The notes beneath the pieces are model-generated. The model was not told where the DNA came from and did no database searches. It saw nothing but the letters and a program-made list of their open reading frames with translations. A stretch of 64,000 nucleotides of DNA from Octopus vulgaris (Eukaryota), in NCBI GenBank assembly GCA_951406725.2, contig OX597814.1, positions 223,634,001-223,698,000 of the forward strand, given 5' to 3'. A program made the position numbers and the translations under genes. Of the stretch, positions 6,881 to 64,000 are shown piece after piece; within the stretch, counting starts at the first letter, position 1; every line of letters begins with the position of its first letter.

Positions 6881-6939
6881 CTACATACACACTGTCTTGC
6901 CCTGGTCAATATGCATACAGTGATTTAAATATATATTCG

Positions 6940-7328: not shown

Positions 7329-8127
7329 CTATATAAATAAATATTACTGTGCAAAGATACGTCATACGTTATTATCATTTACATCATAACACTCCTCCTC
7401 ACCGTCATCATTGTCATTCTCTTCTGTTAGCATGAACGGTAATCTTCAACACAAGTGACGTGGGATACTCATCATTGAATTCTGAGATATACAAACACGC
7501 AGAGATAGAGAGACCAAGACTAAAGGCAGTGGGTGGTATTTAAACTGGCGACAAACAAATTTATTGTCGCAAAGTAGGAATAGATCCCCGATATATTTTC
7601 ACATAGTTTTCATAAATCTAATTCTCGAATCTTTGGTCGAATCGAAGGTGTGGTAGAGGAAGACTGTCAAATGGACTGTGTAATGGAATTGAGAACGACA
7701 CCATACAGCTGCTAATTTAAATTCGCAATAAAACGATTATGCTTACACAAGTAGAGTACAAAGCCTTCCTGTCATGTACAAGAGCAATATTTCCAGTAAT
7801 TGCTCTTTACTTAATATAGTACAACGGGTATTCATCTACGGACATTTCTATATAGCCACAAAATATAAACAGACTAATTCATATGCAGATAACTCACACT
7901 CACACCCTGCAACCACGCTGCAGACACTGCAGCACAGTTGCTCTAACCCAAGCCAGCTTAAATCGCATAAGCATAACCATCGACGGAGAAGAATACACTT
8001 CTTAGCAACAACAGAGACGCAGTTCTTTTGTTTATAGGGGAAGACGCTGTAAATTTGAATCACCTACCTGTCTATATGTCAGTCACTCTGCCTATCTCAC
8101 TGTCTGTCTAACTGCCAATCTGTTTAC

Positions 8128-8295
<168 letters not shown>

Positions 8296-9353: not shown

Positions 9354-9463
9354 AGGGTAACACCAGATAATTCAGGCCACAAAGAATGATCCAACTCCCT
9401 TTCATCAATAGAATTCATATAGAAGAATCACCAAAAGCACATACTTAATTATTATATAGAATA

Positions 9464-9858
9464 CTAGCAGTATCGCCCGGCGTTGCTCGGGTTTGTAAGG
9501 GAAATAACTATATAAGCATTTTTAGAGATGTAAAGTATAATAACCATCTCAATATGGTAAACCACAAAGAGGGGTGTTACTGTAGCTTTTTACGTTCTGA
9601 GATTTAATAATAAATTTTTAGAGAGTTACTTCCCTTATATATGCCAAAAATGGATTAGAAATGGGAAAAATTGATGGTAATTTTTTTTTTCATCGTAGAC
9701 TCATCGTAGACGCGCGCTAATACCCAGAATGGTTCGATATGAATCACGACTATAAGATACCCGGTTTTGGTTACACTGCACCGCAAAATGTGGGAGTAGT
9801 TAGGAATCTAAATCGTAGGAGACAGACACTCACACAACTTCACTTTTATATATAAAGA
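9464..9858 (-). mobile_element. Non-autonomous Helitron-like element
   Basis: On the minus strand it starts A|TC, ends CTAG|T and has the subterminal hairpin CCCGAGC-AAC-GCCGGG. No TSD. Homologous to 10029-10421 and 49026-49331. Confidence 0.8.
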
Positions 9859-10028
9859 TATAAAAATACATAGGTATAAATAAATGTATATAAATATATA
9901 GATATATTAAATATTTAATAAATATGTAAATACATTAAAAATATATAGGGTAACTGATACAGTTAAAAATATACAGATATGAACATTGATACATAAATAT
10001 ATTAAAATATATCAAAGATGTATAAATA

Positions 10029-10420
10029 TCTTTATATATAAAAGTAAGGTTGTGTGTCTGTCTCCTACGATTTAGATTCCTAACTACTCCCACATTTTGC
10101 GGTGCAGTGTAACCAAAACCGGGTATCTTATAGTCGTGATTCATATCGAGCCCTTCTGGGTATTAGCGCGCGTCTACGATGAGTCTACGATTAAAAAAAA
10201 ATTACCATAATTTTTTTCATTTTAATGCATTTTTCGCTATTAAATAAGGGAAGTAACTCTCTAAAAATGTCTACGATGAGTCAACGATTTAAAAAAAATT
10301 TACCATCATTTTTTTCCATTTTTAATGCATGTTTTTGCTATATTTTTGGCTATAACTCTCTAAAAATGCTTATATAGTTGTTTCCCTTACAAACCCGAGC
10401 AACGCCGGGCGATACTGCTA

Positions 10421-10421
<1 letters not shown>
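10029..10421 (+). mobile_element. Non-autonomous Helitron-like element
   Basis: A|TCTTTATATATAAAAG ... CCCGAGCAACGCCGGG-CGATACTG-CTAG|T matches canonical Helitron termini. Carries an internal duplication of the gtctacgatgagtc block. Confidence 0.8.
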
Positions 10422-10464
<43 letters not shown>

Positions 10465-16257: not shown

Positions 16258-18802
16258 TCTTTACATAAACATATGTAATTATTAGCATTGAACCCCAGCG
16301 AATGCAAGGATTTGCTCAAATATATTCCGTTAATTGCCTTTATGACTGTCCCTAATTGCAGTTTCAGTAATGCCAGAGAAATGTCAGCAAAATCTACCTA
16401 CCTTGTATATATATATATATATATACATATATAATGTGTGTGTGTGTACATATATATAAACATATACTTGTATACATGTACATACATACATATGTGAGTG
16501 TGTATCTATGTGCATAGTGCTTTTGTTTACATACGCAGGTATATAGATGTGTTTGGAGATGTGTTTATACTCAGGCATATGATGAAAGAACTCGAGATAT
16601 AACAGAAGAATGTTTGTGCAGTTGTATATACACATGAGTGTATTCTATAAATCGATCGATCTATAATTTTCTGCTTATATTCATTTATGTATGCATATAT
16701 ATATATTTATATATATATATTTATATATACACATATATACATATACATGCATATGTGTGTATGTGTGTGTACATATATATAGATAGATACATTGACACAT
16801 ACGTACTTATAAATATATTTATAAGTATTTAGTACTGCAAGAATAAAGTAGTAATTAGACACGGCACTTCGGCAAAGCGGACACACATTTGTACTTCATA
16901 GTTGTCTTGGCACTGTATACATGTGAATCAATAGTTTCTGGAATGTTCTCAACATCCGGTTGCCAAGTGTATACCAAATATAACACAAATTACCAAATTA
17001 TCCATAAATTTTGCTGTTTATTTGAAGGGAAAATATATCAAGATGTTTCTAGTTTGCGCTCAGAATTGTATTAATATCGTAAAATTTATCTGTACAACTA
17101 CTCGCTGCAACCGCCACCGCTGCCGTAGCTAATTTTGTGATGGAGGTAGCCTAGCGCTAGGTCTATTTCTAACTGAGAAAATCTTTAATCTACAGCGTTC
17201 CAGACACGACTACTCTGTCCTTCTCTTAAGTTTTAGATGTGATTTCTAAATAATGGTTTTGTTGCTATGTCTGATATTTTTCAAGCCTATAATTTGTTTC
17301 AAAAGTCACAAAGATGTCATCGTTTTTGTTTAGCCCTAGGTCAACCATTATTTCGCAGATACAGGATCAAAAGCGTTCCCCCTATGACCACTCCATTTTT
17401 TTATGTATCAATATTTTATATTGTCCAATATATTATTCTTTATTTATAACAGAGGAATGTGATTTGAGGTAGATATGACTGCTATTTCTCTCAAGTGGAG
17501 AAACCATCCACAGGCTTCTCCGTTAGCTATTCGGTAGTAATATTGTTGTGGCTCCATATGGAAGAACAGGTTCCAAATCCCGATTTTCATTGGTCCAGTA
17601 AAGTCGATTTTCTAATTCACGTTTACGCCAATATTTCGGTGTGATACTTATATATGAATGTCGAAGTGTTAGCTGTGGGTTTTTATTGGAATTGGAGAAG
17701 TGTATTACGAATATTTTGCTGGATCTCTTTGCGTTCCTTTACTTTTGACTTTGAAACTCACTAGGAATATATCTCTATGATAATCAATTTCTTCGTTTCA
17801 ACCAGATTTCTGATATCCCAGAAAAATCCTTGGTTGATCTCAATGAAAGCCGGTTTTATTCATACAGAAATTCATTTGATATCTGCATTGATTTAAATAA
17901 GATTCGTGTGATTCAGGAAGTTGTGAACGTTTGCATGCAATATCGAATATTAGAAGCCTTGGAGTACAAACATCGAATCAAAATACATTTAGTTGTTTAT
18001 CTCAATACTCGCTAAACTCTATGAAATGAACTGAAATAAATCCTAAAATGAAAGAGAAAACAAATAAGAGGAATTGATTTATATTAAACCAACTCCTTTT
18101 TCTTCTGTTTTTAATTTCATCTTCTCTCTGTGGTAAAGATTCTCAAAAATACACGTCAGAAAGAATGTGTATGCTGGAAGACAGATTACAGTATCGATGC
18201 TTCATAGATAAAAAAGAAAAAGGCTTCAAATTAATGTATTTCAATAAAACTCGATGTCTGCTAGGTTATTGGATTCTTTCGATTAGGCACATGTTCTACT
18301 ATTTGGGGGAAGAAAATAGGGATTTGTGGCGTTCATACGGTTACCAAGAACACTAAAGATGAAAGTTAAATTTATTGCAGCTGAGGCATAAAAGTTTGGA
18401 TTACATTTAATTCAACGAGTGTATGTTTTTTTCTAGTTTCTAATTATTAAATTCAAGGTCTTAGTATTTTAGGAAGTGCAGAAACGAATATATTGTTATA
18501 TTTCGGGATAGTTTTTCTTTTTCATTTTTGCCCAATAACAACAATATTAAATCCGAAGTGAAGAATGGATATCTAGTGCGTGTGTTTATTTGGGAAAAAC
18601 AATGACCGTCCCGAAATATAACAATATCTGTTTCAACACACGGTTCCACATCAGGAATCTTGCAAAACAAATACATAAACGTAAGAGAAACGAAATATTG
18701 TTATGTTAATGTCTTCCTAGCCGATTGTCCTAAACACCATGCAAAATCCGCTTCGTCAGGTGCATATCCATTCTCAGTTGCATCGCAATAGCCTGTTAAG
18801 AT

Positions 18803-19237
18803 TTTCTTTTCTACTCTAGGCACAAGGCACAAAATTTTGGGGGAGGAGGCAAGTCGATTAAATCGACTCCAGTACGCAACTGGTACTTAATTTATCGACC
18901 CCAAAAGGATGAAAAGCAAAGTCAACCTCGGTGGAATTTAAACTCAGAATGTAAAGACACGTAATACTGTTAAGCATGCCGCCCGGTGTGCTAACGTTTC
19001 TTATTTCTTTACTGTCCACAAAGGGCTACGTACAGAGGGGACAAACAAGGACAGACAAACGGATTAAGTCGATTATATCGATCCCAGTGCGTAACTGGTA
19101 ATTATTTAATCGACTCCGAAAGGATGAAAGGCAAAGTCGACCTCGTAGGAATTTGAACTCAGAACGTAGCGGCAGACGAAATACCGCTAAGCATTCCACC
19201 CGGCGTGCTAACGTTTCTGCCAGCTCACCGCCTTAAT
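18803..19237 (-). mobile_element. Nested or dimeric SINE family B with TSD
   Basis: Two B cores with a junction at 19000/19001 after GCTAACGTTTC. The whole unit is flanked by the direct repeat CTGTTAAGAT (18793-18802, 19238-19247). Confidence 0.85.
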
Positions 19238-28690: not shown

Positions 28691-28705
28691 CATTCAATCA
28701 TAATA

Positions 28706-29125
28706 AACCTTTCTACTAAAGGCACAAAGCCTGAAATTTTGGGGCGAGGAGACTAGTCGATTACATTGAGTCAGTGTTTCCCTGGTACTTATTTTATCGA
28801 CACGCAAAGGATAAAAGGCAAACTCGCAGGAATTTGAACTCTGAACGTACGAAATGCCGGTAAGCATTTTGCCCAGCATGCTAACACATCTTAATTTTTT
28901 TATTGCCCACAGGGGGCTAAACACAGAGAGGACAAACAAGGACAGACACACGCATTAAGTCTATAACATCGACCTCAGTGCGTAACTGGTACTTATTTAA
29001 TCGCCCCCGAAAGGATGAAAGACAAAGTCGACCTCGGCGGGATTTGAACTCAGAACATAACGGCAGACGAAATACAGCTGCGCTTTTCGCCCGGCGTGCT
29101 AAAGTTTCTGCCAGCTCACCGCCTT
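28706..29125 (-). mobile_element. Nested or dimeric SINE family B
   Basis: Two B cores with a junction at 28890/28891 after GCTAACACATC, the same position as in the 18803 copy. Confidence 0.8.
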
Positions 29126-31879: not shown

Positions 31880-32150
31880 TTTTATTCTTTTACTTGTATC
31901 AATCGCAGAAATCGAGCCCAGAACTTATCTTATCGTTCTCTTTGGCCGAACCACTAAGTTTCAGGGACGTAAACACATCAACATCAGCTGTCAAGTGATG
32001 GTGAGGGGACAAACACAGACACACATAAATATATACCAAATCCACTCATAAGGCCGGCCCGAGACTATAGCAGAAGTCTCTTGGCCAAATTGCCACGCGG
32101 TGGGACGGAACCCCAAACCGTATGTTTGGGAAGCATGCTTCCTACTCCAC
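31880..32150 (-). mobile_element. SINE family A, internally deleted copy
   Basis: Blocks gccgaaccactaag, gacgtaaacacatcaacatc, taccaaatccactca and tgccacgcggtgggacggaaccc. Confidence 0.7.
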
Positions 32151-40124: not shown

Positions 40125-40194
40125 ATACACACACTCGCACACATTATACACAGTATATAATATGGAGGAAATTCCTATTACCCAATAATAAGAA

Positions 40195-40413
40195 TAATCC
40201 TCTCTACTAAAGGCACAAAGCCTGAAATTTTTGTGGAAGGGGACTAGTCGATTACATCGACCCCAGTGAAACACTGGTACTTAATTTATCGACCCCGAAA
40301 GGATGAAAGACAAAGTCGACTTCGGCGGAATTTGAACCGAGGAAATAAAGGCGGACTAAATGCCGGTAAGCATTTTCCCCTGCGCGCTAACCATTCTGCC
40401 AGTTCGTTGCCTT
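40195..40413 (-). mobile_element. SINE family B
   Basis: B core plus the CTACTAAAGGCACAAAGCC tail. Confidence 0.8.
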
Positions 40414-40440
40414 ACTCAGTAATAATAATGGTAATCCTGA

Positions 40441-41867
40441 TTTCATTTATTTGCGTCCGAGGCGGATGAGGGGAAACAATAAGAAGACAGACACGAAGCG
40501 TGGGGATTTACACATAATGAAATGATAAAATAATTTTTAAAAATGTAAGTATACACGATATCCAATGGAAAGAAATGGAAATATACATAGTATACAAAAT
40601 TTAAAAGGCGGGAATGGTCTCTAGAGATAATCGAGGAACCCCACTATCTGAGATCTCTCTGAACATCAAGACCAAGTGCCCCTTCCAATTCTCTCTCCCC
40701 GACTCACAGGTCTACACTCAGAGGTACTATCCACTCTTGCCATTTTCGCAACTTTCGCCCACCTTTCAGTAAACTCACTCGAGGACAGCACTTCCCTCTC
40801 TACCCTCAATTTCGTTTTCAAGTGAAACTGAAAATGTCAATGAGACGAAATTATCTGTCCTCATCCCTTTCAGCCTTGTCCACCATAAACCTCTTTCTCC
40901 ACAGCCACCTGGCAAAGGAAAACTGTTTTACCTGTCCGATTACTGGGTGATGACAGGGCAATCATCACTATGAACTCGGCCGACATAACCCCACAAGTCA
41001 GCAACGCCCGGACACTGAACGAGTGCGTGCAGAACGGTTTCGTCACTTTGCGTGCAACTCGCACAAGCTCATCTGACAGCACATCCGTGCCTGCAGAGTT
41101 TATCTGAAACAGGTAGCGCCCCATCACTGCCAGGCTAAGGACATCTAGAAATTATCCATGATAGTTTCCGACCAGAAGGTCCTCCGGAACAAACTGACAA
41201 GTTCGTTTTCGTCAGTGCCCAGACTCTCTCCGAGAACGTCGGCGCACTTATCCGCCACTAATCCTCTATAAATTTCTAAAGAGGAACATCCACCGATCCC
41301 AGTGCCCAACAGTGAGCTGTGAGCGCTTGATGACATTTCAGGTACCAGGCACCCAGTCTCGGTCTTTTCTTCATTCAGGACAACAGCTCCGTCAAAGAGA
41401 CGAGCTACGGACAGACGTGTCTCACAAACTGAGCCCTCACATGCTCACTGTCCAGAAATTGTTGCAGGTGGCGCAACCTAAGAGTATGTCTGCGTATTAG
41501 AAGACACGGCATATCTAACCCGCCACTCAAAGCGTGCTGGCAACAGATTGACCACCTGACCATAGAGTCGCGTCCCTTCCAAAAGAATTTAAATAAAAGA
41601 CGTTCCAATCTGGTCATGTAGTAACCGAGACAACGCACGACAGTCAGTCTATAAACGATAACAGAGACGATGTAGACATTCGCCACTTCTGCCCGACCTT
41701 TCAGGGACAACTTCTTCTCAGCCTATTTTTGGGTAAGACTGGCCATCCTGTTCGTCACCTCGTCCCGATCCTTATCAATTTGGAGGTCGGAATTAAACCT
41801 GACCCCGAACAGTTTAACTGGTCCGTCGATCCAGCGTCCGATGACACCACCCGATGGCATCGATCTG
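40441..41867 (-). pseudogene. 5'-truncated, decayed Tx1-clade LINE related to 55318-60756
   Basis: Fragments align to ORF2: MPSGGVIGRWIDGPVKLFGV vs MPSNNVVGRWTEGPVKLLGV, LERLLFKFFWKG vs LERILFRFLWKG, and LVSLFRRTF vs LINLFRRTF. The 3' end is similar (GAGGGGAAACAATAAGAAGACAGAC). Confidence 0.9.
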
Positions 41868-41894
41868 CAATAATGATTTCTTAATAATAACAAC

Positions 41895-42305
41895 TTTTGT
41901 GCTATAGGCACAAGGGTTCCTGAGAGATGGTTTAGTGGATTACAACTACTCCAGTGCTCAACAGGTACTTATTTTATCGACCCCGATAAGATGAAATATA
42001 AAGTCGAGCTCAGCGGAAGTTGAGTGTAAATGATGGCCAAAATGCCTTTCGGTACATTGTCCGGTGTGCTACTGAGTCTGCTAGTTCATCGCCTCAGTAA
42101 TAATGATAATAATTTCAAATTCAGGTACGGGGCCATCAGTTTTTGAGGAGAAGGAATAAGTCGATTACATCGACCCCATTTTTTTGTTTTTCTGCTACTT
42201 ATTTCATCGAACCCGAAGTCATCCTTAGAAGTTTTTAAATTCAGAACAAAAGGACAATCGAAATACCGCTAAGCATTTTGTCCGGCACCGCTACCGTTCT
42301 ACCCT
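41895..42305 (-). mobile_element. Two adjacent degenerate SINE family B copies
   Basis: B cores at about 41895-42094 and 42113-42305. Confidence 0.65.
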
Positions 42306-45398: not shown

Positions 45399-46114
45399 AA
45401 TTTTTTTTTACTTTCCTTGAAATTATGAGCAAAGTGGTGAATCAAGGTTGAAACTAAATGCTTGCAGCTATAGTTGAAACACCACTGATTATCTGTTGCA
45501 CACTTCCAAATAAAGGGCAAAGATTTAGGGCAACGATTTTTCTGTTTTCGAGGCGAGAAATTAATCATAATCGTTCAAGCATCGGACACAATGGCTGACG
45601 CTATTTTCTCTGGCTTTCCTCGTTCTGAGTTCTCATTCCGCCGCGGTCAGCTTTGCCTCTTACGTTTTCAGCATCAATAAGTAAAACTTCAGTCTAGGAT
45701 GATTGACTAGCAAAACCATTAGAGAGTGTGATGCGATGTGTTGCCGTTTTAATTCTGGTTCTTTACATCCTGAGTTCAAATCCCGCCAAACCTATTTGGG
45801 TAGAAGACTTAATTTGTTATTCCTTAAATGATGCTTAAATGCCTTTAGCGAAGTTCTCTCTATTGCTAACACTCAGGCCAGGTCATCGGTTTCAGGATAA
45901 CTCCCAAGCCTCACCAATCTCGGAGGCCCTGTAAAAGTCTGCCCTTTCCTCCTGACAAAACAATGATAAACAAAACTTCAAATTAGAAAACTCTTTTGCA
46001 GATCTCTTGTTAAATGTCAATAAAAATTATATTTCAGTATCCTGTGAATTCTACCACTCCCCTCTTCAGTTATTGTAATAGGAATAAGAAGAAACAATAT
46101 GTACTATAGACATA

Positions 46115-46821: not shown

Positions 46822-47054
46822 TGTTTCTTTATTACCCACAAGGGGCTAAACATAGAAGGGACAAACAAGGACAGACAAACGGATTAAGACGATTACATCG
46901 ACTCCAGTGCTTAACTGGTACTTAATTTATCGACCCCGAAAGGATGAAAGGCAAAGTCGACCTCGGCGGAATTTGAACTCAGAACGTAGCGGCAGACGAA
47001 ATACGGCTACGCATTTCGCCCGGCGTGCTAACGGTTCTGCCAGCTCGCCGCCTT
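46822..47054 (-). mobile_element. SINE family B (Tx1-tail subfamily), full-length monomer with 16-bp TSD
   Basis: Flanked by ATTCGCCTTTGTCATA at 46806-46821 and 47055-47070. Confidence 0.93.
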
Positions 47055-47660: not shown

Positions 47661-48055
47661 GGCGGCGAGCTGGCAAAAATGTTAGCACACCGGGCGAAAT
47701 GCGTAGCCGTATTTCGTCTGCCACTACGTTCTGAGTTCAAATTCCGCCAAGGTCGACTTTGCCTTTCATCCTTTCGGGGTCAATTAAATAAGTACAGTTA
47801 CGTACAGGGGTCGATATAATCGACTTAATCCGTTTGTCTGTCCTTATTTGTCCTCTCTGTGTTTAGCCCCTTGTGGGTAGTAAAGAAATAGGTATTTCCT
47901 CTGCCGTTGCGTTCTGAGTTCAAATTCCGCCAAGGTGGACTTTCATTCTTTCGGGGTTGATAATATAAGTACCAGTTGAACACTGGGGTCGATGTAATCG
48001 ACTCATCTCCACCTCCCCCAAGCTTCCCTTGTGGCAAAAATTTGAAATAATTATA
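47661..48055 (+). mobile_element. Nested or dimeric SINE family B with 13-bp TSD
   Basis: Flanked by ATAAGAGTAGCAA (47648-47660, 48056-48068). The junction at 47890/47891 (..AAAGAAATA|GGTATTTC) is equivalent to the 7104/7105 junction. Confidence 0.88.
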
Positions 48056-48129
48056 ATAAGAGTAGCAAAGTTGGCAATCTTGCATATTTGTTATCACGCC
48101 AGACAAAAGGCTTGGCATTTGGTCAATCT

Positions 48130-48280
48130 TTACTTTCTGAGTTCAAATTCTGACGAGGTCGATTTTACTTTTCATCTTTTCAGGGTCTGTAACTTAAGTG
48201 CCAGTCAAACACATGGGTCAATGTAATAGACTAGTCCCCCCCGCACAAGATTTCAGGCTTTTTGCCTATAGTAGAAACGA
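48130..48280 (+). mobile_element. SINE family B, 5'-truncated
   Basis: TTCTGAGTTCAAATTC..GAGGTCGA core and the GGCTTTTTGCCTATAGTAGAAA tail. Confidence 0.65.
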
Positions 48281-49025
48281 TTATTATAAGAGATGTAGTC
48301 CTCATTCGTTTTTTTTGTTATTTTTTGCTTGTTTTGTTTTTGTCTTTTGTTTTTTTATTTTTTGCTTGTTCGAATTTCATAATGAGATCGGAATACGCGG
48401 GCGTATGGTCCGTACATACTCGTTCCGTTGTTTTCTTTCCTTTTGGATATTGGTACATTTAATGTTTTGTTACCTGTATTACTATGCTCACTCCTGTCAC
48501 TGATGTTGCAATTGATGCAATCACGATCACTTGTTTTGAGTTCGAAATGAACGAAATTTTTGCTAGTATTACTATGTATTATGTTAATTTTATACTTAGT
48601 GTACCTGTTAGTAATAACTTCTACTTTAAGCACAGTGTCAGCAATTTTGAAGAAAATGGGTTAGTTGATTTCATCAATCCCAACACTTGACAAGTATCTT
48701 TGTTGACCCCCTCTAAATGATAGAATGTGAACTTAACATCGGTGAAATTTGAGCTCAAATATAGATTTAATAAATTACAATGGGGGGAGCGTTAAGCAGT
48801 GATAAGTAAAATTGTAATGTTATTATCAGTTCGAATATGCTTGAAGCACGCTCGAACTGGGGAACAAGCTACTCAGTGTATTTTGTCATGGAAAGTATAT
48901 GCTGTTTGTTGACAAATGGTGTGTATGCATCTAGATCAGCTCACAGTACCACCTATTACACTGTGAGATGCTACCATTTCATAGTAGTGACCAAACGCAG
49001 TGAGTGCAATTTCACTTATCACTGA

Positions 49026-49331
49026 CTAGCAGTATCGCCCGGCGTTGCGCGGGTTTGTAAGGGGAAATAACTATATAAGCATTTTTAGAGTTACTTCCCT
49101 TATATAACCCGAGCAAAAATCATTAAAAATTCGGAAAAATTATGGTAATTATTTTTTTAAATCGTAGACTCATCGTAGACGCGCGCTAATACCCAGAAGG
49201 GCTCGATATGAATGACGACTATAAGATACCCGGTTTTGGTTAAACTGCAACGCAAAATGTGGGAGTAGTTAGGAATCTAAATCGGAGGAGACAGAGTCTC
49301 ACACACACAACTTCAAATTTATATATAAAGA
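49026..49331 (-). mobile_element. Non-autonomous Helitron-like element (third copy)
   Basis: A|CTAGCAGTATCGCCCGGCGTTGCGCGGG ... TATATATAAAGA|T. Same family as 9464 and 10029. Confidence 0.8.
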
Positions 49332-49739
49332 TTTGCGCTCCCCCTCTGTAATTTACTAACGGTGAGCCGTCGCATAGCGCTGCCAGTCACCGTGTGTTGA
49401 CTGAAAATGCATAAAAATGTCAATCGCTTCAGTCAGCTCGTAGCGCCCTCTGGCTAGTGCCTGTGACCAAATAGGAGATTACTCCGAAATGCTAGCATCT
49501 CATAATCTAGGTAGGTGGCACTGCGAGCTGATATAGGTGTATACACACCATTTGTAAGCAAAAGGAATATATTTTCCGTGACAAAACGCAATGAATAGCT
49601 TGTTCCCCAGTTCGAACGTGTTTCAAACATATTTGGACTGATAATAACATTGCAGATGTTTTAAATGCCTACAGCCATTTCGTCCAACGCTTTAAAGATT
49701 CTGTTAGCTATCCTCCTTCGTGGTAGCAATTAATAATGG

Positions 49740-49958
49740 TTTCTCGTTCAGACATAAGACCAACAATTTTTGAGGGGAGGGTTTAGTTGATACCCATACA
49801 TTGACCTCTATACTGACTGTTACTCATTTCAATGATATTGAAAGGATGAAAGGCAAGGTTTACCTCGGTGAGATTTGAACTCATAAATGTAAGAGTGCCG
49901 AAACAAATACTGCAAACCCTTATTCCGACGTTGTAATCATTCCGACAGCTCGCCGCCT
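49740..49958 (-). mobile_element. SINE family B, degenerate
   Basis: GAAAGGATGAAAGGCAAGG..ACCTCGG core and the head end CAGCTCGCCGCC. Confidence 0.65.
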
Positions 49959-49969
49959 ATAATGTAGCA

Positions 49970-54324: not shown

Positions 54325-54562
54325 TAAGGCAGCGAGCTGGCAGAAACGTTAGCACGCCCGGCGAAATGCTTAGCAGTATTTCGTCTGCCGTTACGTTCTG
54401 AGTTCAAATTCTGCCGAGGTCGACTTTGCCTTTCATCTTTTCGGGGTCGATAAATTAAGTACCAGTTACGCACTGGGGTAGATATAATCGACTTAATCCC
54501 TTTGTCTGTACTTGTTTGTCCTCTCTATGTTTAGCTCCTTGTGAGCAATAAAATTTAAAAAA
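54325..54562 (+). mobile_element. SINE family B (Tx1-tail subfamily), full-length monomer with 17-bp TSD
   Basis: Flanked by ATATCTTATCACTCTAT at 54308-54324 and 54563-54579. Confidence 0.92.
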
Positions 54563-54904
54563 ATATCTTATCACTCTATCTATTGATAGACGAGCCAATA
54601 ATGGAACTTCTACGCATGCGATCGGCCCGCTAGAAATAACAGCCAATTGTCTTAAAAGGGCAGCACACATTGGTCAAGCAGTCCTATCATTACAGTTGAA
54701 ATGCTTTCCATGAGATATTTTTTTCCGTCAGTACTAATTTGGAACTGAACAAAAGAAAGAATCTATTGAGAAGTAGTTACAGAGCGGAGGAGTTTATAAG
54801 GCAGAATCGTTGATTTTTGAGCTTTTTAAAAAACGACTGTTATTTGCAGCGCTCCTCTCAAGAGGTTATGGTGCGTGTGTGTGTGTGTGTGCGCGTGTTT
54901 GTAT

Positions 54905-55118
54905 CTTTTATCTTTTACTTGTTTCAGTAATTTGACTGTGGTCATGCTGGAGCACCGCCTTTAATCGAGCAACTCGACCCCGGGACTTATTCTTTGTAAG
55001 CCCAGTACTTATTCTATCGGTCTCTTTTGCCGAACCGCTAAGTGACGGGGACATAAACACACCAGCATCGGTTGTCAAGCAATGCGAGGGGGAAAAACAC
55101 AGACACACAAACATACAT

Positions 55119-55177
<59 letters not shown>

Positions 55178-55317
55178 CGACGGGTTTCTTTCAGTTTCCG
55201 TCTACCAAATCCACTCACAAGGCTTTGGTCGGCCCGAGGCTATAGTAGAAGACACTTGCCCTAGGTGCCACGCAGTGGGACTGAACCCGGAACCATGTGG
55301 CTGGTTAACAAGCTACT
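54905..55317 (-). mobile_element. SINE family A, interrupted in its tRNA-like head by the LINE array
   Basis: Well-conserved family-A copy. It stops at ...GGTTAACAAGCTACT, where intact copies continue with the last about 20 nt of the head (minus-strand GTGGCTGTGTGGTA). Confidence 0.9.
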
Positions 55318-55546
55318 TTATTTCATATAATTTGCCATTTAGGCATTTACAAAGAGGGGACAAACAAGGACAGACAAATATAAAGGATGAAGTAGCTTAA
55401 CACAGTTACAATTTTCGAATGAAATTACGGATAAGATTATAAACAATGAATTTTACGAAGGCAATGTTTAAAAATATTAATGATCATGTCGAAGGACGGA
55501 CACCCAGCCATCCGGGTAGAACCTTTACTTTCTGATCCGGTCACAC

Positions 55547-55768
55547 TTACCTGGTGCCAAACATACCCATCTTGTATGCCACAGGCTTCCATCTTTTCAC
55601 AAACATATCTCGTGACAGACACCTCTTCTCCAGCCTGATTTTGCTACTGAGGTGGTAACTAAAAAAGTTAATCAACCCCTGGCCGGAGACAAAGGTGCCT
55701 GTCACTATACCTTTCGTACGCGTCTTCCATACTGTTTCTTTCAGTATGGCTACTACAAGAAAAAACAA
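55547..55768 (-). CDS. Frameshifted C-terminal extension of LINE ORF2
   Basis: FFLVVAILKETVWKTR... continues ORF2 in the -1 frame across a T6 run. It is colinear with the decayed copy (KTVFLCQVAVEKEV at about 40900). Confidence 0.75.
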   Translation of the reverse strand: MFFLVVAILKETVWKTRTKGIVTGTFVSGQGLINFFSYHLSSKIRLEKRCLSRDMFVKRWKPVAYKMGMFGTR

Positions 55769-58700
55769 GCCTTTCTTTCCCTGTTAAGGAAAGGGGGCGG
55801 CACAATCTCGATGATAGACTCAGCTGATAGCTGTACTCTTCCCATCACTGACAACAGTTGTTCTACAAAAGCTATCAGTCCCGATAACTCCGGACACTCC
55901 ACGAATGCGTGCAAGACGGTCTCCCTATTCTGCTCACATCGCGGGCATGTCGGCGAGACGGCACTACCGTGCCTTGACAGCTTGTCGCGAACAGGTAAAG
56001 CCGCACGGAAACATTGCCAGGCTAGGGATTTCTGGTAATTATCCAGGTACCCCGGCCCGAACGTCCTCCGGAACAGGTTGATCAACTGATTTTCATCGTA
56101 GCCCAGGGTCTCCCCCAAGGCGTCTTCGGACTTAATCTCCACTAACCCGCTATAGAAATCCGTGGTGGAACTCCTGTTGCCGGCGTTGCCCACCCGAGAT
56201 AGTAGCTGGAGCGCCTGACGGCACTCCAAATGCCATTCACTCAGTTTAGGTCTCCGCTTGATCCATGCACCGATGTCCGTTAGGGATGTTAACTGGGGAA
56301 GGTAGAACCGGACGTGCGGCGACCACACCTGCTCTCCATCCAGGTAAAGCCAGAGGTGCCTCAACCTTAACGCGAGTTTTCGCATCCTCAGCCAAGGCAT
56401 CCCTAGCCCACCCTTTAGCGGTTTCTGGCAGCAGACAGAGCGCTTTACAAGTGGCTTTCCTCCTTTCCACAAAAATCGGAAAAGGATTCTCTCCAACTTG
56501 TTCAGCCACAAATCGGGGCAAGGCACCACGGTCAGACGGTAGGTGATTACTGATGCTATAAACATCTGCACCACCTCCGCCTTCCCTAGCAGGGATAACG
56601 CCCGCCCAGACCAGGTCTGGGTTAGAGCGGTCACCTTGTTGGCCACCTCACTCCAATTTTTCTCAATCTGGAGGTCTGGCCCGAACCAGACTCCGAGCAG
56701 CTTAACAGGACCTTCCGTCCAACGCCCTACGACGTTATTGGACGGCATCGGCTTGCCCCTCCAGGTGCCGAGTTGCAAACCGACCGACTTGTCCTTGTTA
56801 ACCTTTGCTCCTGCCACCGCCTCGTAGCTTTTTATGGCCTCTTCCACCACTGGAAGCTGGCCTTCGTCTGCCACGATGATGGAGGTGTCATCCGCATACG
56901 CCGTAGCTCCTCTTCCACACCATAGATCATGCGGCGCGCCCCCTAGTGCCTCCAACTTCCGCAGCAAAGGCTCAAGAGCCAATACGTATAGGAGCGAGGA
57001 CAGGGGACACCCTTGACGAACTGAACGCTCGATCCTGAACGGCTTCGAAAAGGAACCGTTCACCTTGACTACAGACTCGATGTCGCTATACAAAGCAGCG
57101 ATCCAACCTCGAAAGGTCGGGCCTAGGCCAGCCTCTCCGAGGACCGCCGCCAGGTACCGATGGTCGACCCTATCAAATGCTTTGGACTGGTCTAAATGTA
57201 CCAGTGCTCCCCCTGCGCCAGAAAGCTTCCCCACCCTCTCTAAGGAGTAGCGTATAAGGTGGAGATTGTCGTGGATCGTTCTGCCGGGGATAGCGCACGT
57301 TTGCGCTTCCCCGACAAGTTTGTCCACGACCCGCGCCAACCTTTTTGCTAGCACCTTGGCCAGAATCTTTAACTCTGTGTTTAACAGAGTTATGGGCCTG
57401 AAGTTCCCTATCTCGTCCCCCTTGTTCGGGTCCTTCCTGATCAAGGTCACCGCCCTCCGGCTCGCAGACTTGGGAATTCTCCCATTCTGCTGCCAGTTGG
57501 CGTAGACGCTAGCCAGCAGGTGCCCGAACAAGTTTGGCATACTTCTATAAAATTCATAGGGCAGACCATCGAGACCCGGCGACTTCTCCCCGGGGCACTT
57601 GCCCAACACCTCGATTACTTCCTCGGCTGTGATTGGCCCTTCACAGCACTCAGCCTCTCGTGTCGAGAGGCGCGGGCCACCAGACAGGAAGTCCCTAAGG
57701 GCCTCACCATGATCCAGCGTCCCGCACCTCCCGAACAACTCGGCGAAGTGCTTGTGGAGTGCCTCACACATCTCGTCCCGCTTCTTGATCGTGCATCCGT
57801 TTTCATCAACAAGAGACCCAATTGTGGCATCGTTTCCACGCTGTGTTTCTATCGTACGGGCCCATCCGGCAACATTAATTCCCTCACGGCCCAATGCTCG
57901 TACTTTAGCCCGGACTCTACATCCCTCATGTTTGGTTTTGAGGTGACGGTCTAATGCCGTTCTCGCCGCTAAAATGTGAGATGCAGAGCCCAACCTCAAC
58001 GCCTCCTCTAAGTTCTTAACTAGTTGCCCTTCTATTCTAGCCCTATCTAGTCTTAGTTGTTTACTAAATCTAATGGACTCGAATCGAATGGCTCTTTTGA
58101 GGGTGAACCACCACCGGTTATTAACCACGGCTCCGGTTAACGCCCTCTGCACTAACACCTTAATCCGGCTACGGTATGCCTCGCGTGTCAAAATAGACTT
58201 GTTCAGCTTCCAGTAGCCGGTTCCTATCTTAAGTGTGCTATCTATGTCCAGTCTACACGTGACCATTCTATGGTCAGTATAGGGCACCTGGACGAGCTGT
58301 GGACAACTAAAACTAGACTTATCTCTAGTTCTTATCACTATCCTGTCTAGATAAGACTTGAACCTTCCGTCGCCACTCATCCAGGTCCACTCTGGGACGT
58401 TCGGATGGTCAAGTCTGTAACGATCTGCTAGCTGAAACCGTTTAAGCAGATCCACGAGACGTGAGTTCACTTTCCTATAGATCGAGCCAACGCTATCGAT
58501 GTGTACGTCAACGATAGCATTAAAGTCCCCTAATATCACTAAAGTCTTCGACGTCACGAGAAAGCCCTCTAGGCGCCGATAAAAATCAGTTTGGAAACCT
58601 CTAGCACAAGGTGCATAGAGTCCGATCAACCTGAAGGCCTTACTGCTGTATGTCACATCAAGGACGACCAGCCCACCTTCTGGGTCTACATAGACTGTAC

Positions 58701-58947
58701 TTGTCTGTAGAGCCAAGTCTTTACGGATCAGTACCACTACGCCCCCTCGCCCTCCGGTCTGGCCAGGAGACATGATTTTCTCGTAGCCATTCAGGAGAGG
58801 CGAGAAGGTTTGTAGGCTGTCCAGCTTGGTCTCTGTAGCAACCATCACATGTATATCATGTGATCTGAGGTCGTCGAGGAAACAAGCCTGCTTCCACTTC
58901 GAACTCAGACCACGCACATTTAAACAACCAAGGTTAAGCGAAGCCAT
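55753..58947 (-). CDS. LINE ORF2: APE endonuclease, reverse transcriptase and C-terminal CCHC zinc finger (1064 aa)
   Basis: LNVRGL, ETKL, LYAP, LGDFN, YLDR and TDH (APE). KSPGLDG, FRPITLLN, DQSKAFDRV, RQGCPLS and YADD (RT). CPRC..ETVLHAFVEC (zinc finger). Confidence 0.97.
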   Translation of the reverse strand: MASLNLGCLNVRGLSSKWKQACFLDDLRSHDIHVMVATETKLDSLQTFSPLLNGYEKIMSPGQTGGRGGVVVLIRKDLALQTSTVYVDPEGGLVVLDVTYSSKAFRLIGLYAPCARGFQTDFYRRLEGFLVTSKTLVILGDFNAIVDVHIDSVGSIYRKVNSRLVDLLKRFQLADRYRLDHPNVPEWTWMSGDGRFKSYLDRIVIRTRDKSSFSCPQLVQVPYTDHRMVTCRLDIDSTLKIGTGYWKLNKSILTREAYRSRIKVLVQRALTGAVVNNRWWFTLKRAIRFESIRFSKQLRLDRARIEGQLVKNLEEALRLGSASHILAARTALDRHLKTKHEGCRVRAKVRALGREGINVAGWARTIETQRGNDATIGSLVDENGCTIKKRDEMCEALHKHFAELFGRCGTLDHGEALRDFLSGGPRLSTREAECCEGPITAEEVIEVLGKCPGEKSPGLDGLPYEFYRSMPNLFGHLLASVYANWQQNGRIPKSASRRAVTLIRKDPNKGDEIGNFRPITLLNTELKILAKVLAKRLARVVDKLVGEAQTCAIPGRTIHDNLHLIRYSLERVGKLSGAGGALVHLDQSKAFDRVDHRYLAAVLGEAGLGPTFRGWIAALYSDIESVVKVNGSFSKPFRIERSVRQGCPLSSLLYVLALEPLLRKLEALGGAPHDLWCGRGATAYADDTSIIVADEGQLPVVEEAIKSYEAVAGAKVNKDKSVGLQLGTWRGKPMPSNNVVGRWTEGPVKLLGVWFGPDLQIEKNWSEVANKVTALTQTWSGRALSLLGKAEVVQMFIASVITYRLTVVPCPDLWLNKLERILFRFLWKGGKPLVKRSVCCQKPLKGGLGMPWLRMRKLALRLRHLWLYLDGEQVWSPHVRFYLPQLTSLTDIGAWIKRRPKLSEWHLECRQALQLLSRVGNAGNRSSTTDFYSGLVEIKSEDALGETLGYDENQLINLFRRTFGPGYLDNYQKSLAWQCFRAALPVRDKLSRHGSAVSPTCPRCEQNRETVLHAFVECPELSGLIAFVEQLLSVMGRVQLSAESIIEIVPPPFLNRERKACFFL

Positions 58948-58963
58948 TACAAAAGTAAAGGTT

Positions 58964-60292
58964 CTACTTACATTTCGTTGGAGAGGTGGGGGCCGACCTC
59001 ACCACACGTTTGTGGGCCCCTTCTTTCTCCTCTTTCTTCAGATAGTCCGGCAAGTTCGCGATATGCCGGATGGCGTTTGGGTGTCTGTCTTTTAATTGTT
59101 TGAACGTTGTTTCCGCAATCCACGCGTGTCTATTTCGATCTTTGTATTTGTTGTACAGTCTTGCTGACTGATGCTGAACCACAATATCGTTTATGTATTT
59201 GTCTTGTGTGTCGAATTCAATTAATATGAGTTCATTTTCTTTTTTGTCTTCTTTTTCTGGGCCAGTTGAGCGGGATTTTTTTTTCCGTGTCTGTGGTGTG
59301 TCTTTGTTTTTATTATTTTTTGTAGGGGATGTGGACGGGGATGCTGCACGAATTCTTTTACGAACTGGTGTAAATCCCCCCTCTGATACCTCCATGGTAT
59401 CGTCTGTGGTAGCAATAGTTTGTTCGGTAGGCGCCGCAGTTTTTAGGGGGGTGGGAGGTTTTAATAGTGTAGGGGTTTGTGAGTGCGAGGGCTAGGTTTT
59501 TTCTTCAGTCTGTTTTGGGGTTGGCACCGTAACAGCAGGAGTGGGATTTTTTGTTTTTGTAGGGGTAGGTGTGTTTGCAAGGGTAGGGACTTTTTTATTA
59601 TCTGAGGGGCCTGGTGTCTGCGGTTTCTTTTGCTTGTCTGGACAGTCTACACGAATGTGGCCCTTTTTGCTGCAGGCGTAACAGGTGGGTTTTCGGCCTT
59701 CGACCTGTACCCTGAGGGCTACGTTCTCGCCCACGAGCACCCTCTCAGGAAGGAGCTGCAGGTCCTCCGCTGTTCCTTGAATTAATATATTAATGTTACG
59801 CCCGAGCCAAAATCGAGGGGTAGAGCATGTTACTTCTAGTATTTTTATTTTGTCCGCCCTTTTATATAACAGGGCGGCCACTACCTCTACCGGATCTACG
59901 TCCGGCGGGGCTTCTACAATCCTGACCCGGGACGACCTGCGTCCCCTATAGCTTGGAAAAAGTACCACCTCCTTGGTTTTTAGGGGGTTCACAGAATGCC
60001 CGCGGGCCATTTCTTCCCCCGAGAAGCGGACATCCACAGTGCCATATGCCCGTCCCCTGGCGACGTACACGATGTCCTTCCAAATCGGGGACAGGCATTT
60101 CTCGATGGTGCTTTTTTCAAAGTGTTTGAACCTTCTGCTTTGTGGACAGAAAGTTTTAAACACTACGGTCCGCTTCTCGGTCTCCACGATACTGGCGGAG
60201 GGTGATATTTTAACATCACCACCCTCCTCTTGCATTCTTTTAAATAGCTCGACGAGCTGGTTGACATCGATGTCAATCTTCTCGGTAGCCAC
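58964..60292 (-). CDS. LINE ORF1 (Gag-like, CCHC zinc knuckle), interrupted by one in-frame TAG at 59492-59494
   Basis: Track ORFs 59492-60292 and 58964-59395 are in the same frame and joined by an open P/T-rich linker. Knuckle CYACSKKGHIRVDC. The track start codon is GTG. Confidence 0.85.
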
Positions 60293-60771
60293 TGCGGCTA
60301 CCTCAGAAAATTTTTAACATTGCTCTCCTCAAGAGCACTACTTTCGTGAATAATTTCAACAGACATTATTCTGTTGAAATTAGACAACACAAAAATTACG
60401 AATATTGGTTTCCCACAAAACTGGGAAACCTATAGAAAGTTTTTCTTCCAAAGTAGTTCAAAAAAGCAGTTCAAAAATTCCAATTCCCACCCCCATTCGG
60501 GGGAGGGGCACGAAAATAGTCTGGCAGGACTATATATAGTCACGTAAATAAAAAGCCACAGTGGCTAACAGTTCAACGGTAAGAAATTATTCAATTATTT
60601 CCCGGTAAAACCGGAGAACAAGACAGTTCAGCAACGTTTAAAGGCAAATTTTCAGTAGTAGGAATTCAACAATTAATAACACAGCAAAACTTCTTACCGG
60701 GAAGAAAACGCGTCCAAACCGTAGTACGGTAGGCAAAGTCACTCTTCTGTCAGTGAGGTTAGCAAGCTACT

Positions 60772-62755
60772 TTATTTTAAATAATTTGCCACTAGGGCAG
60801 CACACAGAGTAGTAGCTACGGGCTGGACAAGGACATTAATGGATGATGGTGGTGGTTGATGAAGATGGTGATGGGAGAAGTCGAAAGCGCCCGCCGACTT
60901 TTGCTTCTCTAAAACAATGTTTCAATAAATACATTTAATAAACAATGATTCAAATTGCATAAAAATGTTCAACAATTCTTCTCGTCAGGTCCCCGAAGCA
61001 AATTGTCTTGCCGCCTGCAGACAACTCTGCGACGACAAGTCGGGGCCTGCAAAGAGAAAGGTAAAGTCTTTCTTTTCAAAGGTCTCTGCGACCCTTGACA
61101 AAGTATCTTCTGTTACTTTCTCCGCAGCTACCTGCGGAGGCCATAACGGACTCCTTGAGCCGACCGTGTCCTTACGCTCTCGGTCACCCAAGCCAGTCAA
61201 GAATCTTTCAACCTTCTCTCCCTTGTGGTAAAGGAGGAGAAGCATCTCCTCTTCACAGGGAGGGACCTCACACTCCTCCGTCGGTGGCACACTTCCCACT
61301 GGCGGAGCCTTGTCCGCGGGTGGCACACATCCCACCCGCGGCTCCGTCGGCGACACAGAAACGTCAGTCGTCCGACCTCTCCTTTTTCTCCTCCTTCTTT
61401 TGGGGGAGACTGCTGACCCAGGGGACTCCGTCACCAGACACGGGGGATTGCTATCCCCCTTCGCCCCCTGAGCGTTCTTTGGCGGGCAACCATTGTTGCT
61501 CGCCTTTCTCTTTCTTTTCGTGGAGGCAACCTCCTCCACGACTTCCATCGTCTCCCCCTCCAATGAGGGGGCGGCGGGCGCCTTTTCCCCTCTCTGCTCC
61601 GGGGCACCACTACGGCCCCTGGGACAATTCTTCCTGATATGTCCGGGCTTCAGGCACAGGTGACACTTGGGGGGGCGACCCTCGAGTATCACCGGGTACC
61701 TGTGCCCAGCCATTCTCAGGAAGTCCGGGAATTTCATTTGCCCCACGGCTACCGGTGTCCACAGGGTCAAGGTTGCCCTCGACCCCTGCCAGGCGACCGC
61801 GGGAGCCACCTTCACACTTAGCAGTCTGGGTCCGCTATCCCCCAGGCCTCGCCGGATGGTCTTTTCGATCCATTCCGCCTCCGTGCCCGGGGGCAGCCCA
61901 CACACCCAGGCTCTTTTCACTTTTCTGCCACAATACGAGGGGAGGAACAAAATTTCCTCTCCCTCCAGTGGCTCGCTAGCAAATCTGCTAGCTTCCTCGG
62001 GGGTACCAAACAGCAACCAGACCGTTGCAAATTTGCTCCCCCGAGAAATAAATTTTATAGTTGGCAGGTAGTCCCCCAACTCTTTCTCTATAGTATTCTT
62101 GTCGAAGAGGGCAATGGCTCCACGCGACCTAGAATAGGTTCGTAGGACCACCGTCCTCTTCTCAAGACTTTCAATCCACTGCTTTGGTGGGACGACCTCC
62201 CATTCCAAAGCGGTGGTTTCTTTTGTTGCCATGTTTTTTTTTTTGTTTTTTTTAAATAAATGTATTTAGAATAAAACTAAAAAACGAGAAGAAAAGGAAA
62301 TCCGAAGAATGTCACAATGAAAAACGGAGAGAGTCAAATAAAGTTGAAAAGAAAGTCAAATAAAGTTAAAAAGAAAGTCAAAAACACAGCAAAATCCTTT
62401 TGGCCATTTGGTACTCCCGGCCTAAATCGAACCAGGATCGCACAACTTCCACAAAAATTGGTGTAAAATTGGTAGTTCTTCACAGCACCATACAATTTTC
62501 ACAATTCGAAGACGGATACGCCCCCCAAAATTTTCTCAGCGAGAAAATATATCTGCCACATGTCGGCAGAATCAGAATTCTGAATCCAGTAGGACTTCCT
62601 GCATGTAAAAAATAATTCTCAACAAAAACTCCCACTGGACCCAGAAAACAGAATCTTACCTTACATGGGGCTTCCAAAGTTTCAATTCAAGACGGCTTCA
62701 AAAGCACATCTTCACTGCTTCAGTAGCAAACACAACACTGACTCGCACATGCGCA
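60772..62755 (-). mobile_element. Non-autonomous ORF1/Gag-only retroelement, copy 1 (about 2.0 kb)
   Basis: 5' UTR of about 520 bp, a single ORF, and a 3' UTR of about 210 bp ending like the LINE (TGGCAAATTAT..AAATAAA). Bounded by GTTAGCAAGCTACT on both sides. No RT or endonuclease sequence. Confidence 0.88.
60985..62232 (-). CDS. Gag-like ORF1 protein with CCHC zinc knuckle (415 aa)
   Basis: Intact ATG ORF with knuckle CHLCLKPGHIRKNC and basic NLS-like tracts (KRKRK, KRRRRKRR). Colinear similarity to the LINE ORF1. Confidence 0.9.
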   Translation of the reverse strand: MATKETTALEWEVVPPKQWIESLEKRTVVLRTYSRSRGAIALFDKNTIEKELGDYLPTIKFISRGSKFATVWLLFGTPEEASRFASEPLEGEEILFLPSYCGRKVKRAWVCGLPPGTEAEWIEKTIRRGLGDSGPRLLSVKVAPAVAWQGSRATLTLWTPVAVGQMKFPDFLRMAGHRYPVILEGRPPKCHLCLKPGHIRKNCPRGRSGAPEQRGEKAPAAPSLEGETMEVVEEVASTKRKRKASNNGCPPKNAQGAKGDSNPPCLVTESPGSAVSPKRRRRKRRGRTTDVSVSPTEPRVGCVPPADKAPPVGSVPPTEECEVPPCEEEMLLLLYHKGEKVERFLTGLGDRERKDTVGSRSPLWPPQVAAEKVTEDTLSRVAETFEKKDFTFLFAGPDLSSQSCLQAARQFASGT

Positions 62756-62769
62756 GTTAGCAAGCTACT

Positions 62770-64000
62770 TTATTTTAAATAATTTGCCACTAGGGCAGCA
62801 CACAGAGTAGTAGCTACGGGCTGGACAAGGACATTAATGGATGATGGTGGTGGTTGATGAAGATGGTGATGGGAGAAGTCGAAAGCGCCCGCCGACTTTT
62901 GCTTCTCTAAAACAATGTTTCAATAAATACATTTAATAAACAATGATTCAAATTGCATAAAAATGTTCAACAATTCTTCTCGTCAGGTCCCCGAAGCAAA
63001 TTGTCTTGCCGCCTGCAGACAACTCTGCGACGACAAGTCGGGGCCTGCAAAGAGAAGGTAAAGTCTTTCTTTTCAAAGGTCTCTGCGACCCTTGACAAAG
63101 TATCTTCTGTTACTTTCTCCGCAGCTACCTGCGGAGGCCATAACGGACTCCTTGAGCCGACCGTGTCCTTACGCTCTCGGTCACCCAAGCCAGTCAAGAA
63201 TCTTTCAACCTTCTCTCCCTTGTGGTAAAGGAGGAGAAGCATCTCCTCTTCACAGGGAGGGACCTCACACTCCTCCGTCGGTGGCACACTTCCCACTGGC
63301 GGAGCCTTGTCCGCGGGTGGCACACATCCCACCCGCGGCTCCGTCGGCGACACAGAAACGTCAGTCGTCCGACCTCTCCTTTTCTCCTCCTTCTTTTGGG
63401 GGAGACTGCTGACCCAGGGGACTCCGTCACCAGACACGGGGGATTGCTATCCCCCTTCGCCCCCTGAGCGTTCTTTGGCGGGCAACCATTGTTGCTCGCC
63501 TTTCTCTTTCTTTTCGTGGAGGCAACCTCCTCCACGACTTCCATCGTCTCCCCCTCCAATGAGGGGGCGGCGGGCGCCTTTTCCCCTCTCTGCTCCGGGG
63601 CACCACTACGGCCCCTGGGACAATTCTTCCTGATATGTCCGGGCTTCAGGCACAGGTGACACTTGGGGGGGCGACCCTCGAGTATCACCGGGTACCTGTG
63701 CCCAGCCATTCTCAGGAAGTCCGGGAATTTCATTTGCCCCACGGCTACCGGTGTCCACAGGGTCAAGGTTGCCCTCGACCCCTGCCAGGCGACCGCGGGA
63801 GCCACCTTCACACTTAGCAGTCTGGGTCCGCTATCCCCCAGGCCTCGCCGGATGGTCTTTTCGATCCATTCCGCCTCCGTGCCCGGGGGCAGCCCACACA
63901 CCCAGGCTCTTTTCACTTTTCTGCCACAATACGAGGGGAGGAACAAAATTTCCTCTCCCTCCAGTGGCTCGCTAGCAAATCTGCTAGCTTCCTCGGGGGT
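62770..64000 (-). mobile_element. Non-autonomous ORF1/Gag-only retroelement, copy 2 (runs off the window end)
   Basis: Almost identical to 60772-62005. Two 1-bp homopolymer deletions (near 63055 and 63382) frameshift the ORF. Confidence 0.88.

Follow-up and report, generated by a model that had tools for sequence, protein, structure and literature searches.

A LINE and a SINE that end in the same letters may share the enzyme that copies them, and the locus described here raises the question of whether a LINE of the L1 superfamily can be the partner of an octopod SINE. Sharing of 3' tails between SINEs and LINEs is in general already well established, and in the octopods it points to the enzyme that copies their SINEs, while tail recognition has been seldom reported for L1-related elements. 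SINEs make up about 40% of the annotated TE content in octopuses (PMC8967140; the sources given by PMC number are cited throughout from excerpts), and in O. vulgaris they occupy 11.6% of the genome, with 893 unclassified among the 900 SINE families that were active recently (PMC13282606); the excerpts of these two papers name no partner LINE for octopus SINEs. We analysed a stretch of 64,000 nucleotides of the O. vulgaris genome (the window), for which a preliminary description had proposed that a LINE and the tails of a SINE subfamily share a 26-nt block and that the LINE lineage mobilises the SINE.

The LINE in question, LINE1, belongs to an array of minus-strand elements inserted into a SINE of another family (family A), with two ORF1-only units upstream of it:

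54902 to 55303, minus strand: body of the family-A SINE that hosts the array
55304 to 55318, minus strand: 15-bp target duplication in the family-A SINE head, just past the A box
55319 to 60757, minus strand: LINE1, a full-length-looking element of the L1 superfamily (Tx1-like)
55333 to 55345, minus strand: 3' hairpin of LINE1, with a 4-bp stem and a 5-nt loop, followed by a GAAATA end
55353 to 55378, minus strand: 26-nt pyrimidine/G-rich block common to LINE1 and the tails of family-B SINEs, identified by matching and shuffles
60773 to 62755, minus strand: ORF1-only unit 1 (HAL1-like), with a 415-aa ORF1 homologue and no ORF2
62771 to 64000, minus strand: ORF1-only unit 2, incomplete at the edge of the window

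ORF1 of LINE1 (about 60367-58964) contains a zinc knuckle, one frameshift near its start and an in-frame stop at 59492; ORF2 (58947-55753) comprises APE, RT and zf-RVT domains and has a frameshift near its C-terminus. Both frameshifts, one near each coding end, lie at T runs, and the 3' UTR is about 220 nt long. LINE1 and both ORF1-only units stop immediately ahead of a common 15-bp sequence, which recurs with 1 mismatch at 60758-60772 and 62756-62770, so that they form a head-to-tail array; with two other family-A copies as reference, the site corresponds to the family-A head right after the A box, and the 5' end of the host SINE would fall beyond position 64000. The target site duplication (TSD) of 14-15 bp reported earlier for LINE1 is indeed 15 bp long, but it represents one of three occurrences of a junction within an array that occupies a family-A SINE head.

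The ORF1-only units share with LINE1 their terminal ~35 nt, including a hairpin at 60787-60799 in unit 1, and thus combine an ORF1 without ORF2 with a 3' end common to an autonomous relative, as is characteristic of HAL1-like units. The ORF1 of unit 1 is 29% identical to that of LINE1, and a search with the ORF1-only protein returned 51 relatives, the best of them at 62%. The two units differ by 2 internal single-base indels over ~1245 nt, which could be assembly errors. We also observed that nine bases in the LINE1 3' UTR (55390-55398) form an exact reverse complement to bases 1-9 of the target duplication (p ~0.004 by shuffle, for a pattern noticed post hoc) and pair with the duplication in the predicted fold (z=-1.6); a 7-nt version of this stretch is present in an ORF1-only unit (p 0.12) and none in LINE2, the sister element introduced below.

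Domains PF03372, PF00078 and PF13966 in ORF2 assign LINE1 to the L1 superfamily, and the best match of ORF2 in the PDB is human L1 ORF2p (E=8.5e-67, as compared to E=5e-20 for R2). In ORF1, PF00098 scores above the cut-off, and neither Transposase_22 nor RRM was detected. Among named proteins the closest is one of Argonauta hians (63% over the RT region); named Tx1 elements are absent from the LINE1 protein-search matches, the quick tree was likewise built without a Tx1 reference, and an NCBIfam scan added nothing. We refer to LINE1 as Tx1-like on the grounds of its type of ORF1, its target behaviour (three insertions at one 15-bp site, at a single locus of the source genome) and, in part, of what we take to be the typical features of the Tx1 clade. 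ORF1 of that clade has been described as Type I-like, with a CCHC knuckle and not Transposase_22 (PMC5203782), and its members as exhibiting target sequence preference (PMC4494074).

The SINEs that carry the block (family B) and those that resemble them (C1 and C2 types) are distributed over the window as follows:

4485 to 4698, minus strand: C2-type SINE, tail matching the 3' ends of the ORF1-only unit and of L022
7111 to 7326, minus strand: B SINE whose initial 47 nt are much more diverged than its remainder, joined to a C2-type SINE (6932-7103)
19008 to 19231, minus strand: B SINE with a 26/26 block, joined to a head-truncated C1-type SINE (18801-19003)
28899 to 29122, minus strand: B SINE joined to a head-truncated C1-type SINE (28696-28890), of the same junction class as the copy at 19008
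40187 to 40410, minus strand: C1-type SINE with the head and core of B, tail matching the 3' end of L001 and L041
41895 to 42098, minus strand: decayed C-type SINE, tail without a match to a LINE end at p<0.05
46822 to 47051, minus strand: B SINE monomer with a 16-bp TSD
47662 to 47890, plus strand: B SINE joined to a C2-type SINE (47892-48045), of the same junction class as the copy at 7111
48062 to 48285, plus strand: C1-type SINE
54329 to 54556, plus strand: B SINE monomer with a 17-bp TSD and a compensatory change in the stem

Here L001, L022 and L041 denote arrayed LINE relatives from another assembly, to which we return below.

The match between LINE1 and the B SINEs is beyond chance. 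The block at 55353-55378 is identical (26/26) to 19034-19059 and recurs with 1-2 mismatches at 7137, 28925, 46854, 47833 and 54501, just as the preliminary description had it; with up to 3 mismatches allowed, the window contains 7 matches, one in the LINE1 3' UTR and six in B tails, all in the same sense, and 100 dinucleotide shuffles contain 0. Full identity to LINE1 is limited to one B copy of six, and the six-copy majority differs from LINE1 at one block position. The similar distance of the block from the 3' end was correctly noted too, being 34 nt in LINE1 (end at 55319) and ~32 nt in the monomeric SINE 46822-47051. So were the TSDs of the monomeric B copies, 16 and 17 bp; their similarity to the 15 bp of LINE1 holds, but it is weak evidence for pairing. 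Downstream of the nearly invariant block the remaining 34 nt of LINE1 and of the B SINEs diverge, in both stem and loop, yet the hairpin is kept.

B and C SINEs have a common head and core and different tails. The C copies were assigned to C1 or C2 by visual inspection ahead of the tail test, which used 500 shuffles per comparison (floor p=0.002) and 84 SINE comparisons in total; the test took 8 of the 11 C copies, leaving out three decayed ones at ~42160-42300, 45560-45720 and 49800-49960. All six B tails match the LINE1 end at p=0.002, while none of the eight C tails matches LINE1 or LINE2; at the same p value the C1 tails match L001 (4/4) and the C2 tails match the ORF1-only end (3/3). Weak matches to the ORF1-only end are seen for four of six B tails as well (p 0.014-0.042), and one C copy of the eight matched no LINE end tested. 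With 84 comparisons, single weak p values mean little and what counts is the block-wise pattern of the table: at the sequence level there is one SINE body combined with three tails, and each tail has its own matching Tx1-like 3' end. The B tails have neither poly(A) nor a repeat tail; the C1 copies generally have ATT repeats at their end and in their flanks, most of them lacking clear TSDs. The B copies differ from their consensus at 4-11 of ~118 core sites, and by comparison LINE1 looks younger and LINE2 older than they are.

The head of B and C is probably tRNA-like, judging from A and B boxes seen by eye, with 0 tRNA genes found by ARAGORN and no tRNA match in Rfam. For the window as a whole Rfam returned only microsatellite-driven matches below gathering scores, and no U1 or U2; B has neither the snRNA head nor the poly(A) tail of the SINEU type. 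Other repeats in the window include inverted-terminal (MITE- or DNA-transposon-like) elements at 9453-10433, 49025-49332 and 48813-49654, found by self-comparison, and two unclassified pairs, 10901-11467/26310-26874 (69% identical) and 23118-23318/23445-23651 (76% identical), the latter weakly resembling the block.

The feature common to all these ends is a hairpin with a 4-bp stem and a CUNGU-type loop, located just before an AATAAA/GAAATA end and exhibiting compensatory stem changes. It is present in LINE1 (whose loop departs from the consensus), LINE2, the two ORF1-only units, 14 SINE tails and the arrayed relatives of another assembly. An alignment of 26 tails, 25 of them distinct, was assembled from 3 LINE-type tails of the window, 14 SINE tails and 9 array subfamilies. 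The stem is paired in 91 of 100 cells, three of the four pairs are changed on both sides, and none of 500 shuffles reaches this, with slid controls at 32-51%; since the alignment was anchored on a pattern of our own choice and its rows are related, these statistics are to be read as support and not as a probability.

The relatives come from a contig scan, which returned 69 loci, 63 of them on 16 contigs of one assembly. These 63 loci are head-to-tail eukaryotic retrotransposons, 38-44% identical to ORF2, and a stem-CTNGT-stem hairpin lies near the unit end in 63 of the 63 searched, which, since the loci are overlapping and near-identical, count as about ten subfamilies rather than 63 cases. 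They group with LINE1, LINE2 and P0001 with SH-aLRT 100 in a quick tree without bootstrap. Their junctions of ~15 bp are subfamily-specific; ARAGORN found no RNA genes as targets in 15 loci, and in 8 relative loci Rfam reported above its gathering score only U1, in L063. The 26-nt block is missing from all 69 loci (at least 7 mismatches). In the six distant loci (L063, L064 and L066-L069), several of which lack a 3' end, a relaxed hairpin pattern gave no hit in five and four scattered hits in L068. The conserved core of these tails is the hairpin, the block being a feature of a sub-lineage.

The loci L001-L062 and L065 (contigs CAXXMW01*) are filed as a bacterial MAG, and yet consist of arrays of Tx1-like units of 6.4-6.8 kb; they are eukaryotic contamination of a GTDB entry. 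The locus L063 (29% identity) ends directly at a U1 snRNA gene (8029-8205) that is without its first ~35 nt, and has an intact U1 gene upstream (1104-1267); it is possibly a U1-targeting element.

A second LINE in the window bears on the side from which the block was acquired:

40438 to 41866, minus strand: LINE2, an old 5'-truncated sister element with 7 stops, 42% aa identity to LINE1 ORF2

LINE1 and LINE2, both within the 64-kb window, are the only two LINE copies from the source genome in this analysis, and LINE2 lies between C-type SINEs in ATT-rich sequence (40187-42300). A search for its TSD found none. The similarity of the two at the DNA level is restricted to the coding part, with the exception of the very end: the terminal 62 nt of LINE1 can be aligned with the LINE2 end (p=0.001), and only the B copies and the ORF1-only units score above this site when the window is scanned as a whole. 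The block ought to recur in other copies of the LINE, according to the preliminary description, and LINE2, the one sister that could be consulted, does have the same kind of end, with a degenerate block at ~40468-40493 and a decayed hairpin at 40453-40465 that pairs at 2 of 4 positions. Taken alone this block is weak, with four of six B tails at p<0.05 against LINE2 and two not.

This bears on the possibility that the block travelled from SINE to LINE, i.e. that an ancestor of LINE1 captured it from B, or from a similar motif in family A, by template switching or conversion, in which case the block would ride along and the hairpin alone, if any part, would act as a signal. Such a capture would account for a block that hardly varies next to 34 nt of divergent sequence, that is of low complexity, and that is absent from the more distant relatives. 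A source would be at hand as well, for LINE1 targets family A, and family-A SINEs contain an internal motif identical to the block at 19-20 of 23 positions and to LINE1 at 20-24 of 30 positions in 5/5 copies; owing to this motif one family-A copy scores 37, nearly as much as LINE2 with 38. The motif is found right after a TG microsatellite (55088-55110, ~6265-6290 and ~32010-32035). However, it is internal, and the tails of family A match neither LINE1, LINE2 nor the ORF1-only ends (5/5 at p>0.05), whereas LINE2, which belongs to a sister branch and whose 3' UTR is unrelated in other respects, has its version at the same position as LINE1. Moreover, capture by LINE1 leaves the tail matches of C1 and C2 unexplained, and we regard it as improbable.

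The opposite transfer, from LINE to SINE, could still have left a tail that is Tx1-derived and vestigial, recording the origin of B while its copies are moved by another LINE or a relaxed one. No B copy, of six, lies at the target of LINE1, these copies seem older than LINE1, and the ATT-repeat ends of C1, mostly without clear TSDs, fit such a reading as well; in O. vulgaris RTE, Dong-R4 and CR1 families have been active recently alongside L1-Tx1, which comprises 80 consensus families (PMC13282606). A search of the window with 23 fetched proteins found no other RT-bearing elements. Against a vestigial tail, the stem is intact in five of six B copies, in one of them through a compensatory change, B offers no poly(A) or repeat tail that another LINE could use, and the TSDs of its monomers match in length that of the array. 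To this reading we give even less credence than to capture by LINE1.

We consider it likely, instead, that a Tx1-like LINE lineage and these SINEs form a partnership of the stringent type, with swapping of tails, at the level of the lineage. Shared tails, covariation of the hairpin, three-way tail matching, an array at one site and B-C joins at two positions can all be read from the letters of the window and its relatives, and two hallmarks of stringent pairs are found: a common 3' terminal sequence and a stem-loop conserved through compensatory changes, the latter in an anchored alignment of related rows. The earlier suggestion that this LINE lineage mobilises the SINE is thus upheld as far as the lineage is concerned, on the evidence of sequence, but probably not for the family of LINE1 itself. 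Given the differing final 34 nt and the absence of B copies from the LINE1 target, that family is probably a sister of the one that donated the B tail, and the donor most likely lies outside the window.

The B copies may have a target preference of another kind. Directly after four of the six comes a C SINE with a truncated head, the junction falling at one of two recurring positions; this is unlikely by chance (1.5e-5), given that C-like copies (all 11 counted) cover only 3.2% of the window. In these joins the C halves differ at 46 of 215 sites and the B halves at 25 of 235 (p=0.002 pooled; 0.014 and 0.074 for the two junction classes), and within a junction class the C halves are 78-79% identical as compared to 87-91% for their B halves. 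The head of the copy at 7111 is old (13 mismatches of 45 versus 7 of 118, p=2e-4), the other three joins being uninformative in this respect. The simplest reading of these differences would be that B copies inserted into older C heads, with the 5' junction formed by homology, and SINE heads would accordingly be preferred targets. In one junction class (7104-7111 and 47884-47897) a short palindrome spans the join, made of the last letters of the B tail and the first of the C remnant.

Alternatively, the joins could be copies of dimeric masters or chimeras generated by template switching, a reading that bears on the targeting claim alone. Outer TSDs of 10 and 13 bp surround two whole joins, a leftover duplicated head is absent upstream of all four, and the copy at 46828 is without a run of four T, which makes read-through transcripts plausible; furthermore, the old head is seen in one join of four and the second class taken alone gives p=0.07. 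The unequal divergence of the halves is not what copying from a single master would produce, nor is the old head at 7111. A single dimeric master for each class can be discarded on the divergence of C halves from B halves; as to several dimeric masters, or chimeras, we deem them unlikely, if less so than the two alternatives concerning the tail.

In the model that we favour, the Tx1-like lineage would recognise its own RNA by a pyrimidine-rich tract and a hairpin followed by an AATAAA/GAAATA end without poly(A). A tRNA-like SINE body, presumably transcribed by pol III, would have acquired tails from at least three sub-lineages (B, C1 and C2), the tail having moved from LINE to SINE, and that of B would come from the LINE1/LINE2 sub-lineage, most likely from a sister family. 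By analogy with stringent LINEs, the ORF2 protein of these sub-lineages would bind tract and hairpin, nick the target and copy the SINE in trans via target-primed reverse transcription, which would start at the A-rich end and leave a duplication of 15-17 bp; the ORF1-only units would use the same 3' signal.

A broader proposal, to which we give slightly less than even chances, is that an animal Tx1-like lineage has a CUNGU-loop stringent signal across families only ~40% identical in ORF2, drives a major share of octopod SINE expansion via one tail-swapping body (at least three sub-lineages), and directs its own insertions and those of its passengers into the pol III heads of SINEs, with the result that the LINE, ORF1-only units and SINEs become nested in each other. 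If correct, it would bring animals into the range of stringent recognition by the L1 superfamily and provide a partner for the very abundant octopod SINEs, whose subfamilies could then be classified simply by tail. With its 13-nt hairpin and natural variants of the stem, such a case in an animal would also make the ancestral stringency of the L1 clade directly testable.

A literature search found no SINE sharing its tail with a Tx1 element in titles and the beginnings of abstracts, and Repbase, Dfam, SINEBase, subscription papers, figures and other supplements may hold a prior note; the excerpts of PMC4758252, PMC13282606, PMC4824008, PMC5786205, PMC10294476 and PMC8967140 likewise contain no such pairing. 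Among known systems, stem-loop tails are an established signal of stringent LINEs (PMC4176376). The UnaSINE/UnaL2, ZfL2, CR1 and RTE pairs resemble the one described here in having a short common 3' tail with a stem-loop and no poly(A) (PMC3747384, PMC4176376), but the partner of B is an animal element of the L1 superfamily and B is devoid of a 3' microsatellite. The part of Ohshima 2013 cited here, Table 1 with its 58 pairs, contains no LINE named Tx1, the clade of RSg-1 aside (PMC3747384), and according to Ohshima 2012 L1-clade tails are found in just 3 of 58 SINEs, from plants and an alga (PMC3472496). In ZmSINE2/3 with LINE1-1_ZM and SINEX-3_CR with L1-1_CR, a 3' hairpin of the L1 clade with variable stem and conserved loop is shared by SINEs, as in the octopus; those hosts, however, are plants and a green alga and the loop is UCU, while here the host is an animal and the loop is CUNGU-type (PMC3472496).

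SINEU and Tx1-Mar of crocodilians (Kojima 2015, PMC4494074) are similar in that the SINE has been assigned to a Tx1 partner, insertions enter another repeat at two unrelated hot spots, and tandem copies occur around a TSD; they differ in that SINEU has snRNA heads and poly(A) and is paired by target preference, as opposed to a structured tail and SINE-head targets here. No LINE with the 3' terminus of SINEU-1 was found according to the excerpts of that paper (PMC4494074). Octopus OK, OR1 and OR2, MetaSINE and CORE-SINE, compared by description, combine a tRNA-like head and a common body with exchangeable tails, as the SINEs of the window seem to do (PMC4824008). MetaSINEs have a 66-bp Meta-domain behind the tRNA head, and a comparison by eye, in which the body of B and C did not resemble the bivalve MetaSINE rows, gave no support for membership (PMC4824008). 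Finally, HAL1, HeT-A and Ag-Sponge are ~2-kb units encoding only ORF1p that end like an autonomous element, as do the ORF1-only units of the window (PMC5786205, PMC5753468); unlike them, the latter are Tx1-like, have an ORF1 only 29% identical to that of the adjoining LINE, and are stacked with it at one target.
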